A stretch of DNA of 64,000 bases, from NCBI RefSeq assembly GCF_058153355.1, contig NZ_CM177019.1; one strand, 5' to 3'. The notes under the pieces are model-generated. The model made no database searches and had not been told where the DNA came from. It saw only the letters and a list, made by a program, of their open reading frames with translations. The position numbers and the translations under genes are program-made. Numbering within the stretch: position 1 is the stretch's first letter; each line of letters begins with the position of its first letter. Below are positions 54,719 through 62,782 of this stretch, one piece after another.

Positions 54719-56854
54719 TTGCTTAATCCGATCGTTCGTAAATTCCAGTACGGCCAACACACCGTGACTCTGGAAACCGGCATGATGGCGCGTCAAGCCA
54801 CTGCCGCTGTTATGGTTAGCATGGATGACACCGCGGTATTCGTTACCGTTGTCGGCCAGAAAAAAGCCAAACCAGGTCAGGACTTCTTCCCGCTGACCGT
54901 TAACTATCAGGAGCGTACCTACGCTGCTGGTCGTATCCCGGGTAGCTTCTTCCGTCGTGAAGGCCGCCCAAGCGAAGGCGAAACGCTGATCGCGCGTCTG
55001 ATTGACCGCCCGATTCGCCCGCTGTTCCCGGAAGGTTTCGTCAACGAAGTTCAGGTTATCGCCACCGTGGTTTCTGTTAACCCGCAGGTTAACCCGGATA
55101 TCGTCGCGATGATTGGTGCTTCTGCGGCGCTGTCTCTGTCTGGTATTCCGTTCAATGGTCCGATTGGTGCTGCCCGCGTAGGTTACATCAATGACCAGTA
55201 CGTACTGAACCCGACTCAGGACGAGCTGAAAGAGAGCAAACTGGACCTGGTTGTTGCCGGTACAGAAGCTGCCGTGCTGATGGTTGAATCTGAAGCTGAA
55301 CTGCTGAGCGAAGACCAGATGCTGGGCGCAGTGGTGTTCGGTCATGAACAACAGCAGGTTGTTATTCAGAACATCAATGAACTGGTGAAAGAAGCCGGTA
55401 AACCGCGTTGGGATTGGCAGCCGGAGCCGGTAAACGAAGCGCTGAACGCGCGCGTTGCTGCGCTGGCTGAAGCTCGTCTGAGCGATGCTTATCGCATCAC
55501 CGACAAACAAGAGCGTTATGCGCAGGTTGATGTCATCAAATCTGAAACCATCGCGACGCTGCTTGCTGAAGACGAAACCCTGGACGAAAACGAACTGGGT
55601 GAAATTCTGCACGCTATCGAGAAAAATGTTGTTCGTAGCCGCGTACTGGCAGGCGAACCGCGTATCGACGGTCGTGAAAAAGATATGATCCGTGGTCTGG
55701 ATGTGCGTACTGGCGTGCTGCCGCGTACTCACGGTTCTGCGTTGTTCACCCGTGGTGAAACGCAGGCACTGGTTACCGCAACGCTGGGTACTGCACGTGA
55801 CGCACAGGTTCTTGATGAACTGATGGGCGAACGTACTGACACCTTCCTGTTCCACTACAACTTCCCTCCGTACTCCGTAGGCGAAACCGGCATGGTCGGT
55901 TCTCCGAAACGTCGTGAAATTGGTCACGGTCGTCTGGCGAAGCGCGGTGTGCTGGCAGTCATGCCGGATATGGACAAATTCCCGTACACCGTACGTGTTG
56001 TGTCTGAAATCACCGAATCCAACGGTTCCTCTTCTATGGCTTCCGTGTGCGGCGCGTCTCTGGCGCTGATGGACGCAGGTGTGCCAATCAAAGCTGCTGT
56101 TGCGGGTATCGCAATGGGTCTGGTGAAAGAAGGCGACAACTACGTTGTACTGTCTGACATTTTGGGCGACGAAGATCACCTGGGCGATATGGACTTCAAA
56201 GTTGCGGGTTCCCGCGACGGTATCTCTGCATTGCAGATGGATATCAAAATTGAAGGTATCACCAAAGAGATCATGCAGGTTGCGCTGAACCAGGCTAAAG
56301 GTGCGCGTCTGCATATCCTGGGCGTAATGGAACAGGCGATCAACGCGCCGCGTGGCGATATCTCTGAGTTCGCACCGCGTATCCATACCATCAAGATCAA
56401 CCCGGACAAGATCAAAGACGTTATCGGTAAAGGCGGTTCTGTTATCCGTGCTCTGACCGAAGAAACTGGCACCACCATCGAAATCGAAGATGACGGTACT
56501 GTGAAAATCGCAGCGACCGACGGCGAGAAAGCGAAACATGCTATTCGTCGTATCGAAGAAATCACCGCAGAAATCGAAGTAGGCCGCGTCTACAATGGTA
56601 AAGTGACTCGTATCGTTGACTTTGGCGCATTTGTTGCCATCGGCGGCGGTAAAGAAGGTCTGGTGCACATCTCTCAAATCGCTGACAAACGTGTTGAGAA
56701 AGTGACCGACTACCTGCAGATGGGTCAGGAAGTACCGGTGAAAGTTCTGGAAGTTGATCGCCAGGGCCGTATCCGTCTGAGCATTAAAGAAGCGACTGAG
56801 CAGTCTCAACCTGCTGCAGCACCGGAAGCTCCGGCTGCAGAACAGGGCGAGTAA
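54719..56854 (+). CDS. pnp: Polynucleotide phosphorylase
   Basis: ORF 54632..56854; conserved N-terminus (M)[20 protein letters not shown] starts at TTG 54719, preceded by GAAAGG Shine-Dalgarno; two RNase PH domains, KH and S1; 711 aa. Confidence 0.9.
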
Positions 56855-56962
56855 GGTTGCCATTTGCCCTCCGCTGCGGCGGGGGGCTTTTAACCGGGCA
56901 GGACGCCTTGTTAGCAACCGGGAACAGGACGTTCATTCAACCGTGGTCTTCGGGAGTGGGAA

Positions 56963-57847
56963 ATGAAGCCTTTTTTGCGCTGGTGTTTCGTTGCGACAGC
57001 ACTTACGCTTGCAGGATGCAGTAATACTTCCTGGCGTAAAAGTGAAGTCCTCGCGGTACCATTGCAACCGACTTTACAGCAGGAAGTGATTCTGGCACGT
57101 ATGGAACAAATCCTTGCCAGTCGGGCTTTAACCGATGACGAACGCGCACAGCTTTTATATGAGCGCGGAGTGTTGTATGATAGTCTCGGTCTGAGGGCAT
57201 TAGCGCGTAACGATTTTTCGCAAGCGCTGGCAATCCGACCGGATATGCCGGAAGTATTCAATTACTTAGGCATATATTTAACGCAGGCAGGCAATTTTGA
57301 TGCTGCCTATGAAGCGTTTGATTCTGTACTTGAGCTTGATCCAACTTACAACTACGCGCACTTGAATCGCGGGATCGCATTATATTACGGCGGTCGTGAC
57401 AAGTTAGCGCAAGATGATCTGCTGGCGTTTTATCAAGACGATCCCAATGATCCTTTCCGTAGTCTGTGGCTTTATCTCGCCGAGCAGAAGCTCGATGAGA
57501 AGCAGGCTAAAGAAGTGTTAAAACAGCACTTCGAAAAATCGGATAAGGAACAGTGGGGATGGAACATTGTCGAGTTCTACCTGGGCAACATTAGCGAACA
57601 AACGTTAATGGAAAGGCTCAAGGCGGACGCAACGGATAACACCTCGCTCGCTGAGCATCTCAGTGAAACCAACTTCTATTTAGGTAAGTACTACCTAAGT
57701 CTGGGGGATTTGGACAGCGCCACGGCACTGTTCAAACTGGCGGTTGCCAACAACGTTCATAACTTTGTTGAGCACCGATACGCATTGTTGGAATTATCGC
57801 TCCTGGGCCAGGACCAAGATGACCTGGCAGAATCGGACCAGCAATAG
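56963..57847 (+). CDS. nlpI: TPR-repeat outer-membrane lipoprotein NlpI
   Basis: 294-aa ORF with lipoprotein signal (…LTLAGCSN…) and TPR repeats. Confidence 0.9.
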
Positions 57848-57953
57848 CTGACGTACACATCAGCCCGTAATCTTTTTTGATTGCCATCACCTTAACGGGT
57901 GAGGGCGTTGTTGTTCGTTAATACACCTACTTTGAGCCGGTTCACACTTTTCA

Positions 57954-58034
57954 ATGAAAATTGCTGATCAATTTCATGATGAGTTATGTAGACTGGCCGC
58001 CATTAATTTTGAGGCACACGTACTACATGGCTGA
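57954..58034 (+). CDS. yrbN: Small ORF (26 aa) in the deaD leader, overlapping the deaD start codon
   Basis: ATG 57954 … TGA 58032-58034 encodes [26 protein letters not shown], consistent with the small protein YrbN as I recall it; below the ORF-track size cutoff. Confidence 0.5.
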
Positions 58035-59916
58035 ATTCGAAACCACTTTTGCAGATCTGGGCCTGAAGGCTCCTATCCTTGAAGCCCTTAACGATCTGGG
58101 TTACGAAAAACCATCTCCAATTCAGGCAGAGTGTATTCCACATCTGCTGAATGGCCGCGACGTTCTGGGTATGGCCCAGACGGGGAGCGGAAAAACTGCA
58201 GCATTCTCTTTACCTCTGCTGCAAAATCTTGATCCTGAGCTGAAAGCACCACAGATTCTGGTGCTGGCACCGACCCGCGAACTGGCGGTACAGGTTGCTG
58301 AGGCAATGACGGATTTCTCTAAACACATGCGCGGCGTAAACGTGGTTGCCCTGTACGGCGGCCAGCGTTATGACGTGCAATTACGCGCCCTGCGTCAGGG
58401 GCCGCAGATCGTTGTCGGTACTCCAGGCCGTCTGCTGGACCACCTGAAACGTGGCACTCTGGACCTCTCTAAACTGAGCGGTCTGGTTCTGGATGAAGCT
58501 GACGAAATGCTGCGCATGGGCTTCATCGAAGACGTTGAAACCATTATGGCGCAGATCCCGGAAGGTCATCAGACCGCTCTGTTCTCTGCAACTATGCCGG
58601 AAGCGATTCGTCGTATTACCCGCCGCTTTATGAAAGAGCCGCAGGAAGTGCGCATTCAGTCCAGCGTGACTACCCGTCCTGACATCAGCCAGAGCTACTG
58701 GACTGTGTGGGGGATGCGTAAAAACGAAGCACTGGTACGTTTCCTGGAAGCGGAAGATTTTGATGCGGCGATTATCTTCGTTCGTACCAAAAACGCGACT
58801 TTGGAAGTGGCAGAAGCTCTTGAGCGTAACGGCTACAACAGCGCTGCACTGAACGGTGACATGAACCAGGCGCTGCGTGAGCAGACGCTGGAACGCCTGA
58901 AAGATGGTCGTCTGGATATCCTGATTGCGACCGACGTTGCGGCCCGTGGCCTGGACGTTGAGCGTATCAGCCTGGTAGTTAACTACGATATCCCGATGGA
59001 TTCTGAGTCTTACGTTCACCGTATTGGTCGTACCGGCCGTGCGGGGCGTGCTGGTCGTGCGCTGCTGTTCGTTGAGAACCGCGAGCGTCGTCTGCTGCGC
59101 AACATTGAACGCACTATGAAGCTGACCATTCCGGAAGTAGAACTGCCGAACGCAGAGCTGCTGGGCAAACGCCGTCTGGAAAAATTCGCCGCTAAAGTAC
59201 AGCAGCAGCTGGAAAGCAGCGATCTGGATCAATACCGTGCACTGCTGAGCAAAATTCAGCCGACTGCAGAAGGTGAAGAGCTGGATCTCGAAACTCTGGC
59301 AGCCGCACTGCTGAAAATGGCACAGGGTGAACGTACTCTGATCGTGCCGCCAGATGCGCCGATGCGTCCGAAACGTGAATTCCGCGACCGTGACGACCGT
59401 GGTCCGCGCGATCGTAACGACCGTGGCCCGCGTGGCGACCGTGAAGATCGTCCGCGTCGTGAACGTCGTGATGTTGGCGATATGCAGCTGTACCGTATTG
59501 AAGTGGGCCGCGATGATGGTGTTGAAGTTCGTCATATCGTTGGCGCGATTGCTAACGAAGGCGACATCAGCAGCCGTTACATCGGTAATATCAAGCTGTT
59601 TGCTTCTCACTCCACCATCGAACTGCCGAAAGGTATGCCGGGTGAAGTGCTGCAACACTTTACGCGTACTCGCATTCTTAACAAGCCGATGAACATGCAG
59701 TTGCTGGGCGATGCACAGCCGCATACTGGTGGTGAGCGTCGTGGCGGTGGTCGTGGTTTCGGTGGCGAACGTCGTGAAGGCGGTCGTAACTTCAGCGGTG
59801 AACGCCGTGAAGGTGGTCGTGGTGATGGTCGTCGTTTTAGCGGCGAACGTCGTGAAGGCCGCGCACCGCGCCGTGATGACTCTACCGGTCGTCGTCGTTT
59901 CGGTGGTGATGCGTAA
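58027..59916 (+). CDS. deaD: Cold-shock DEAD-box RNA helicase
   Basis: ORF 57961..59916; conserved start [21 protein letters not shown] at ATG 58027; motifs [25 protein letters not shown]; Arg/Gly-rich C-terminal tail; 629 aa. Confidence 0.9.
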
Positions 59917-61373: not shown

Positions 61374-61904
61374 TCAAATATATCCTTGTTTATTATAAAG
61401 TTCTTCGGCAAGTGCTTCCCCATGTTCATCGAAAAATGCATTGGCGATCTTTAAATTATTCTCCTCAGGATTTGCCGTTATCCTGCTACCATTGGAATCA
61501 AATTCGAGCGCGATGGCGATCTCCGACCCCCACCAGTAATCATAAATTAGCGCAAAATTATTTTCCCCTGGCGTAATAAATTTCTCGATGCCTCGCACAC
61601 AGGCCATGAGTGGTATGAAGATTTCATAGCTCTCTGAGAGAAATATATGATCCATCGTGACTATCTGTGTTTCTTTATTAAAGTTGATATGTTCGGCATA
61701 AATATTCTTTTCACTTTCACCAGAATTACAAGCTGCAAGATTGTTAAGCATTTTTGCAGGATCGCCGTACAACCGCTGCTTCTCGATAAACCATGGCAAC
61801 CAGTCGTCATGGTCTTTGATATTTGTTGCTGGTGAATGGAAAAACTTCTCGAGGTTACTCTCGGTAATATGTGTATGAAGAAAAAAGGAAGCCGGTTCAC
61901 TCAT
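61374..61904 (-). CDS. Hypothetical protein (176 aa), no recognisable domain; first gene of the AT-rich islet between mtr and yhbW
   Basis: Uninterrupted ORF in AT-rich DNA with a plausible start context; no signal peptide seen; Trp/Tyr-rich (IYDYWWGSEIAIALEFD). Confidence 0.55.
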   Translation of the reverse strand: MSEPASFFLHTHITESNLEKFFHSPATNIKDHDDWLPWFIEKQRLYGDPAKMLNNLAACNSGESEKNIYAEHINFNKETQIVTMDHIFLSESYEIFIPLMACVRGIEKFITPGENNFALIYDYWWGSEIAIALEFDSNGSRITANPEENNLKIANAFFDEHGEALAEELYNKQGYI

Positions 61905-62062
61905 AATGATTTTCTCTGGTAATAAGTCGATTTGTTCATTTCTCTGTTTGGCGATGATAAAACGATGACTATTTTATAAAAGTACAGAACTGGACCTTTC
62001 ATCTATTTCCTATCATAGGAAAATATATACTTGAACTGGATCAGAATAAGCGGAATACGAAA

Positions 62063-62782
62063 ATGGGGTGTAAAGGATTACTCGCTATTGTATTGTTGAG
62101 CCTGTTTATCGCTTTTATTTTAAAAATTTTCTGGCCCACCCCGCACGATGAACATCTTTTCCTGCCCGTTGAAAAACCTTTCGTATCGTCTTTAAAAATC
62201 ATTCGCCCCGGCGACCAGTTATTTATCCGCATTCTGAAAGCGGAAGATAAGCTGGAACTGTGGGCAAGCATCAACAACAAGCCTTACGAACTCTATAAAA
62301 CCTGGACTATATGCGCGTGGTCTGGTGGCTTAGGGCCAAAACACAAACAGGGGGATGGTAAAAGCCCGGAAGGTTTTTATGCCACCAACAAAGGGTTGCT
62401 TAACCCAAACAGCCGCTATCATCTGGCATTTAATATTGGTTACCCGAATGCTTACGATCGGGCAAACGGCTACACCGGTGATTTCATTATGGTTCACGGA
62501 AACTGCGTTTCGGCGGGCTGCTATGCCATGACCGATGCTGGTATTGAAGAGATTTATCAACTGGTGGCGCAGGCGCTGAATAGCGGACAGAAGAGCGTGC
62601 CGGTGCATATCTTCCCGTTTGCGATGAACGACGAAAATATGCGCCAGGCGCAGGCATGGCCGGAATATAATTTCTGGCGTATGTTGAAGCCCGGCTATGA
62701 TTACTTTGAAAAAAATCGCCGATTGCCAACCATCAACGTTGAAAACCGGCGTTATAAAATCAGCCCAACAACTCTTCCTTAA
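62063..62782 (+). CDS. YafK/DpaA-like L,D-transpeptidase-fold (YkuD) protein with N-terminal membrane anchor or signal
   Basis: 239-aa ORF; hydrophobic N-terminus ([18 protein letters not shown]); YkuD catalytic signature [14 protein letters not shown] (His … Ser-x-Gly-Cys) and YafK-like motifs [32 protein letters not shown]. Confidence 0.65.

Follow-up and report, generated by a model that had tools for sequence, protein, structure and literature searches.

Does the short open reading frame (ORF) that runs into the start of deaD in Escherichia coli take part in the expression of the downstream gene and, if so, through its peptide, its RNA or the act of its translation? DeaD (CsdA) is the main cold-shock RNA helicase of this species, and its regulation is partly understood, with contributions from an 838-nt leader, from Rho and from autoregulation. 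If the upstream ORF (uORF) gated the access of ribosomes to a masked deaD start, a translational step would be added to this circuit, and a function would be found for a small gene that, like many others in E. coli, is an orphan. The question was addressed in a window of 64,000 nt (the whole stretch of DNA analysed; RefSeq assembly GCF_058153355.1, contig NZ_CM177019.1) that represents the E. coli pnp-nlpI-deaD-mtr region. All positions are those of the window. The features at the junction of the two genes are as follows:

57954..58034, + strand: yrbN coding sequence, 26 codons, with an ATG start and a TGA stop at 58032-58034 (RefSeq WP_010723222.1)
58027..59916, + strand: deaD (csdA) coding sequence, 629 codons, product starting MAEFETTF (ORF and RefSeq table)
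58027..58034, + strand: overlap of yrbN and deaD, 8 nt (ATGGCTGA), which holds the ATG of deaD as well as the TGA of yrbN
58011..58014, + strand: core of the deaD Shine-Dalgarno (SD) sequence, GAGG, within an invariant GAGGCAC (alignment columns G170-C176, first row; anti-SD duplex of -5.6 kcal/mol)

A 26-codon frame alone is not beyond chance at this site, because 64 ORFs of at least 20 amino acids are listed within the surrounding 4 kb and the TGA is made by codons 2-3 of deaD (GCT GAA), the yrbN frame being -1 relative to deaD, whose ATG occupies 58027-58029. The identity of the ORF was established from annotation and family membership. RefSeq lists "protein YrbN" (yrbN, WP_010723222.1) at exactly 57954..58034, with deaD beginning 8 nt ahead of the yrbN end. 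The translated peptide matched the NCBIfam equivalog NF033440 ("small_YrbN") with 76.3 bits (cutoff 33, E = 9.4e-22), residues 1-26 covering profile positions 1-26, and is thereby placed in the family. Its location agrees with this assignment, since a gene between nlpI and deaD that overlaps or abuts the deaD start was seen both in RefSeq and in 30/30 free-living Enterobacterales. E. coli K-12 yrbN (b4685; UniProt C1P618; NF033440) is the same gene, with an identical 26-aa product, nlpI-deaD location and 8-nt overlap, and differs in nothing. When the segment 57800-58200 was searched with megablast, it was found in 5425 of 5426 complete E. coli genomes, with an identity of at least 99% in all but one, and the genes annotated beneath the match were nlpI, yrbN and deaD. 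It is essentially certain that the ORF at 57954-58034 is yrbN, a known and annotated gene of 26 codons at the 3' end of the 838-nt deaD leader. The initial annotation, which had reported a 26-codon ORF whose TGA overlaps the deaD ATG and had interpreted it as a short uORF within an extended deaD leader, was right on both counts, and its coordinates (+ strand, 8 nt in common) were exact to the base.

The ORF, its overlap with deaD and the idea of a leader peptide were all on record before. As cited in a 2021 preprint on the csdA/deaD leader, yrbN was first reported by Hemm et al. (2008) and was accepted after detection of an epitope-tagged product; the preprint itself describes yrbN as a possible leader peptide within the 838-nt deaD leader and leaves its role in deaD translation open. 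A supposed paralogue was rejected: what a figure legend in VanOrsdel (2018) labels "yrbN_PAIR_0" is YnfR, which is encoded beside cspI and whose sequence (MKAPSGAFLLGVYSMDTHILR) is unrelated.

Conservation was assessed in 80 deaD loci from species-representative genomes, namely the 80 best matches, and 31 Enterobacterales sequences (the window and loci L002-L031) were compared in detail. Each of the 30 free-living Enterobacterales, which range from Escherichia to Proteus, Photorhabdus, Budvicia and Erwinia, has a yrbN homologue immediately ahead of deaD (tblastn E-values of 1e-14 to 8e-5). The order of nlpI, a spacer of 171-187 nt and deaD is kept in each of them, and every uORF contains the core motif L-C-R-L-A-A. 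In the 50 other deaD loci among the 80 best matches (Pasteurellaceae, Orbaceae, Alteromonadales and others), no homologue was found by tblastn, and three reduced insect symbionts have lost yrbN. The range given as "gammaproteobacteria" in the 2021 preprint is wider than the Enterobacterales range obtained here from the 80 best matches.

Lack of conservation of the frame across Enterobacteria had been named at the outset as an outcome that would speak against a regulatory uORF. The check was run, and the frame proved to be kept throughout: an ATG is found 67-73 nt ahead of the deaD ATG in 31/31 sequences, followed by at least 18 open codons. Between the two ATGs, the 31 sequences contain 6 stops in the yrbN frame (all at codon 19 or later), compared with 56 in the frame that would extend deaD and 101 in the third frame, so that yrbN is the only open frame. 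The distance between the ATGs is 73, 70 or 67 nt, with indels in multiples of three; the exception is Acerihabitans (71 nt), which has an early uORF stop. The stop/start overlap fared less well. The two genes share 8 or 11 nt in 25 of the 31 species, and in the remaining six, 1-16 nt lie between the uORF stop and the deaD ATG. The 8-nt form occurs in most genera and is absent in 10/31 species, while 11 nt are shared in four species (Serratia, Yersinia, Photorhabdus and Morganella). The stop lies 16 nt ahead of the deaD ATG in Erwinia, Tatumella and Rosenbergiella gaditana, 11 nt ahead in Acerihabitans and 1 nt ahead in Proteus. Judged from the alignment, the exact yrbN/deaD overlap is not the conserved feature. 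The encoded peptide varies at both ends: its C-terminal third differs in length and sequence (the whole product has 18 aa in Erwiniaceae), and its N-terminal half is replaced in Proteus and Morganella, where the divergent nucleotide sequence is still open.

Two of the loci showed peculiarities of their own. In an Enterobacterales metagenome-assembled genome (MAG; L032:1430-1499), a uORF of 22 codons (MKIVSCFLDNKYQRIDVNCGGM) begins 71 nt ahead of deaD and stops 2 nt short of the deaD ATG; the N-terminus of its product resembles that of Hafnia YrbN, whereas the LCRLAA core is absent, the frame being kept and the core sequence replaced. In Escherichia sp. ESNIH1 (L009:1316-1432), an ORF in the nlpI frame runs through the spacer to a TGA that overlaps the yrbN ATG; either nlpI is truly extended at its 3' end or frameshifted in this genome, or the assembly is in error.

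The type of selection acting on the frame was examined by pooled pairwise comparison and by parsimony. The yrbN frame gave a pN/pS of 0.65 (0.49 in its variable N-terminal part), compared with 0.87-1.08 in the off-frames and 0.13 in deaD, and the changes were distributed over the three codon positions as 39/55/64. In codons 10-16, pS was 0.077 as against 0.63 in deaD, which means that synonymous sites are about 8-fold more conserved and, consequently, under constraint. The peptide, by comparison, is weakly constrained, as indicated by the pS of 0.55 and the pN/pS of its N-terminal part and by the distribution of changes over codon positions. When neutral evolution was simulated at the per-site rates observed, 9.4% of the runs left codons 1-16 without a stop in every species, so that the open frame alone is not decisive (p ~0.09). 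A real frame is nevertheless supported by a pN/pS below that of the off-frames, by the multiple-of-three indels and by the independent annotation. Constraint also extends upstream of the start codon, where one more feature was defined:

57928..57956, + strand: nearly invariant block UUUGAGCCGGUUCACACUUUUCAAUG ending in the yrbN ATG (alignment columns 119-147, with 0-1 parsimony changes per column across the order)

This block of ~29 nt is as invariant as the yrbN core, although it lies nearly entirely outside the ORF. As far as the alignment can be read, the pattern points to constraint at the RNA level combined with maintenance of an open frame, rather than to a conserved protein.

The signals for initiation differ between the two genes. 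The deaD SD core and the ATG are 12 nt apart in E. coli, a distance that shrinks to 9 nt in species in which the TAC triplet is missing; the 12-nt spacing is long and favours a reliance on coupling. yrbN has no usable SD sequence, its best anti-SD duplex (-3.9 kcal/mol) lying ~20 nt upstream, and its start context is AU-rich and relatively open. When the start codons of 54 genes in the window were ranked by predicted accessibility, that of deaD came last, and only two initiation regions scored lower than that of deaD. Partition-function calculations gave an unpaired probability of at most 0.16 for the deaD AUG in 30/30 species, compared with 0.16-0.97 for the yrbN AUG. Two predicted structures involve these sites:

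57982..58032, + strand: hairpin B, predicted by folding, in which AGUUAUGUAGACUGGCC (57982-57998, yrbN codons 10-16) pairs with GGCAC..CUACAUGGCU (58013-58032)
57936..57997, + strand: helix A, an alternative long-range helix predicted from the RNAalifold consensus, in which GCCGGUUCACA (57936-57946, upstream of the yrbN ATG) pairs with UGUAGACUGGC (57987-57997)

Hairpin B is predicted to bury both the SD sequence and the AUG of deaD. In E. coli, it has a folding energy of -19.5 kcal/mol (z = -3.97; none of 200 shuffled sequences was as stable), and it was the minimum-energy fold in all 12 species that were folded; in the 11 of these other than E. coli, sampled across the order, values ranged from -15.7 to -24.7 kcal/mol and z from -0.16 to -5.0. 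The spacer between SD and AUG is variable and is predicted to pair with the invariant arm in lineage-specific ways, for instance through CAGU with ACUG in Proteus. Helix A uses the same core, so that the two structures are mutually exclusive, and it dominates over hairpin B in 7/30 species. Covariation is thin for both, because the arms barely vary: hairpin B is paired in 97.5% of the cells with only two double changes, and helix A in 99.2% with one-sided changes and 0 compensatory ones. Both are regarded as well-motivated predictions. In 31/31 species, including those whose uORF does not overlap deaD, the whole 5' arm of hairpin B is read before the uORF stops. Covariance models from Rfam, run on 56800-58300, gave matches at chance level only (E of at least 1.1, far under the gathering scores). 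The masking hairpin and the constraint pattern are additions of this analysis, no earlier description having been found in the literature searched. A simple RNA thermometer was considered and rejected on the basis of in-silico thermodynamics: the predicted probability of hairpin B in E. coli rises from 0.75 at 37°C to 0.93 at 15°C, and across 30 species the balance between A and B shows an inconsistent trend between these temperatures.

The reading that we favour, with a probability of roughly 0.55, is that yrbN serves as a coupling (leader) ORF that unmasks the deaD start and acts through its translation rather than through its peptide. In the free mRNA, hairpin B would lock the SD and AUG of deaD against yrbN codons 10-16. 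A ribosome that starts at the accessible, SD-less and AU-rich yrbN AUG would read through the 5' arm and melt the hairpin, and upon its termination on or just before the deaD AUG, either the same ribosome could re-initiate or a new 30S subunit could bind the exposed site. The upstream invariant segment, which as part of helix A pairs with the same core, may set the frequency of hairpin B. Strict termination-reinitiation cannot be universal, because in Erwiniaceae 16 nt separate the uORF stop from the deaD ATG, which places the stop immediately 5' of the SD sequence. The suggestion of translational coupling or a regulatory uORF, made when the ORF was first noted, thus gains a concrete form from a hairpin that is predicted to hide the deaD SD and AUG and from a uORF that always traverses one of its arms; that deaD translation depends on yrbN is what we infer from this arrangement. 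Several points count against coupling, namely the wide range of z for hairpin B in the other species (-0.16 to -5.0), the thin covariation, the missing SD sequence of yrbN, the simulated p of ~0.09 for the open frame and the published explanation of deaD autoregulation at the mRNA level. Together, the constraint pattern and the masking hairpin turn the vague notion of a "regulatory uORF" into a specific and testable model. A more elaborate version, in which helix A and hairpin B form a three-segment RNA switch with the SD-less uORF as its moving part, is put forward tentatively and would need to be regarded as doubtful. In such a switch, deaD translation would report the capacity of the cell to initiate on and unwind structured mRNA (for instance in the cold, or at low activity of DeaD or CspA), adding a translational layer atop the published autoregulation through Rho and mRNA stability.

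The arrangement was compared with known systems. In secM-secA and ermCL-ermC, a ribosome on the leader ORF opens a helix that sequesters the downstream SD sequence, stalling being brought about by a specific nascent peptide together with secretion status or a drug; in secM-secA, the ribosome on the uORF keeps this helix open. yrbN shares with them a three-segment logic, in which the leader ORF overlaps one arm of a helix hiding the downstream SD and start. It differs in that stalling is programmed in these systems, whereas the conserved codons of yrbN are explained by RNA pairing. The 28-codon uORF uof of E. coli is reportedly coupled translationally to fur and controlled by the sRNA RyhB. Like yrbN, which is of similar size, uof directly precedes and overlaps a regulator gene; translation of uof is required for that of fur. 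To our knowledge, no sRNA acts on yrbN and no regulator of its initiation has been described. The 5' UTR of cspA, a cold-shock RNA thermosensor, resembles the deaD leader in that a cold-shock gene is preceded by a long structured leader and access to its SD sequence is proposed to hinge on alternative folds. In contrast to the cspA thermosensor, hairpin B is predicted to gain stability at 15°C in E. coli, and the deaD leader matched no Rfam family. In idlP-iraD of E. coli, both coupling and control by CsrA at the uORF start have been demonstrated (Park et al. 2017, PMC5574718). Here, too, a short uORF has a stop that overlaps the downstream start, and the SD sequence is sequestered (for deaD, by prediction); the sequences are unrelated, and coupling is demonstrated for iraD, whereas we infer it for deaD. 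With respect to coupled leader uORFs as a class, the window shows a stop that overlaps the downstream start (ATGGCTGA) and, as predicted for hairpin B, a sequestered downstream SD and start. Attenuation of the trpL/hisL type was rejected, as yrbN lacks the run of regulatory codons typical of such leaders and the scan for terminator-like sites came back empty; a terminator between yrbN and deaD is not possible, because the two ORFs overlap.

The leader upstream of yrbN was inspected for signals of transcription, which yielded two features:

57154..57181, + strand: promoter-like hexamers TTTATA and TATGAT with a 16-nt spacer, inside nlpI (the only such site in a scan of 56800-58200)
57887..57902, + strand: hairpin TCACC/GGTGA between nlpI and yrbN, with compensatory changes and a G/T-rich tail up to 57919

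The transcription start of deaD was mapped 838 nt upstream of the ATG by Ojha & Jain (2020). This position corresponds to 57189 in the window, 8 nt past the promoter-like site, and since it lies inside nlpI, most of the deaD 5' UTR consists of the 3' two-thirds of the nlpI coding sequence. The same study described Rho- and DeaD-dependent control through the deaD leader, in which yrbN is unmentioned, and accounted for autoregulation at the mRNA level without the need of translational control. In the deletion series of the 2021 preprint, an effect of yrbN was not separated from that of the rest of the leader. In Erwinia, yrbN and the helicase gene were seen to rise together by RNA-seq. The TCACC/GGTGA hairpin shows compensatory changes in 3/5 pairs across 30 species, and its covariation score was reached by 0/500 shuffles. 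Its likely role, from this pattern, is that of a conserved terminator, an attenuator or a stability element; in E. coli, it went undetected in a simple scan for terminators.

Other readings of the locus were weighed against coupling. YrbN might work in trans as a small protein, with DeaD, the ribosome or the cold-shock machinery among its possible targets, and the overlap would then only secure co-expression with deaD. A pN/pS below 1 in the yrbN frame only (0.49-0.65, compared with 0.87-1.08), the preservation of Asp9 and His8 through synonymous T/C changes, the conservation of the motif DELCRLAA across an order and the curation of the YrbN family as an equivalog by NCBI are all in keeping with a selected peptide. 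The conserved residues coincide, however, with the RNA pairing segments, where synonymous sites are ~8-fold more conserved than in deaD. Moreover, the C-terminal third is variable (the product is cut to 18 aa in Erwiniaceae), Proteus and Morganella have a different N-terminal half, the divergent Enterobacterales MAG keeps a uORF in place without the motif, and YrbN has neither a Pfam domain nor a hydrophobic segment; a role in trans is thus held to be unlikely. If YrbN were an arrest peptide with a sensory role, as SecM and TnaC are, nascent DELCRLAA would stall the ribosome under some condition and hold hairpin B open, a notion invited by a conserved central motif in an otherwise variable ORF and by a geometry that recalls secM-secA. 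It is very improbable nonetheless: LCRLAA is conserved, but anything between 2 and 10 codons separates it from the stop, a ribosome held at the stop would sit on the deaD start instead of exposing it, and the conservation of the motif is explained by RNA pairing because its synonymous sites are frozen.

That yrbN translation mainly shields the distal leader and the deaD start from Rho termination or RNase, as an antitermination or stabilisation device, is unlikely, even though uORF-controlled access of Rho is known for tnaC and mgtA. In vitro, Rho terminates transcription 400-900 nt from the transcription start, a range that spans yrbN (+765 to +846), and deaD is among the listed targets of cold-induced Rho antitermination, with no assigned mechanism. 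Deletion of -820 to -101, on the other hand, abolishes regulation by Rho and DeaD although yrbN and the conserved block stay in place, so that the yrbN region is insufficient and the main Rho loading region lies upstream; shielding also leaves the pairing of the deaD SD and AUG with the uORF core unexplained. Alternatively, selection could act on an RNA element formed by helices A and B, and the frame would then be a by-product that is fortuitously open and has no meaningful translation. The invariant blocks do reach outside the ORF, the first 16 codons were open in 9.4% of the rate-matched runs, yrbN is without an SD sequence and its codon periodicity is weak. Since the ATG is kept in 31/31 species, indels are multiples of three wherever the uORF reads into deaD, pN/pS is lower in the yrbN frame than in the off-frames, the divergent N-terminal halves of Proteus and Morganella stay open and an epitope-tagged product was detected (Hemm et al. 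2008, as cited in the 2021 preprint), such a by-product is considered quite improbable. The older annotation of the region as an N-terminal extension of DeaD (646-651 aa, from ATG 57976 or TTG 57961) can practically be dismissed: the deaD frame is open back to 57961 in E. coli, but it is broken by stops in other species (within 8 codons of the deaD ATG in 8/31, and further upstream in many others), the 56 stops in this frame showing that the long start is not conserved. Its codon-position pattern of 55/64/39 is contrary to coding, and RefSeq sets the deaD start at 58027. The coupling ORF therefore remains the preferred reading of yrbN.

Several minor observations were made in the course of the analysis. 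The segment 57848-57863 (CTGACGTACACATCAG) directly follows the nlpI stop (TAG, 57845-57847), and GCTGACGAACA is conserved across Enterobacterales. In cspA-type leaders, the "cold box" has the sequence UGACGUACAGA, and TGACGTACA within 57848-57863 resembles it. Further downstream, at 57899-57967, a 22-codon frame with a GTG start ends at a TGA that overlaps the yrbN ATG (AATGA), and this TGA is invariant. Between mtr and yhbW, at 61374-62782, two ORFs are found, one of 176 aa (- strand) without a Pfam match and one of 239 aa (+ strand) with a YkuD L,D-transpeptidase domain (PF03734); they represent a strain-variable insertion of ~1.3 kb, as they are absent from this position in E. coli SK1144. 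In the Pasteurellaceae loci L038 and L041-L047, which have no yrbN, a conserved hairpin GAAAGC...GCUUUCC precedes ATGACTGA ~30-60 nt upstream of deaD and, judged by its sequence, may be an unrelated leader element for this gene.
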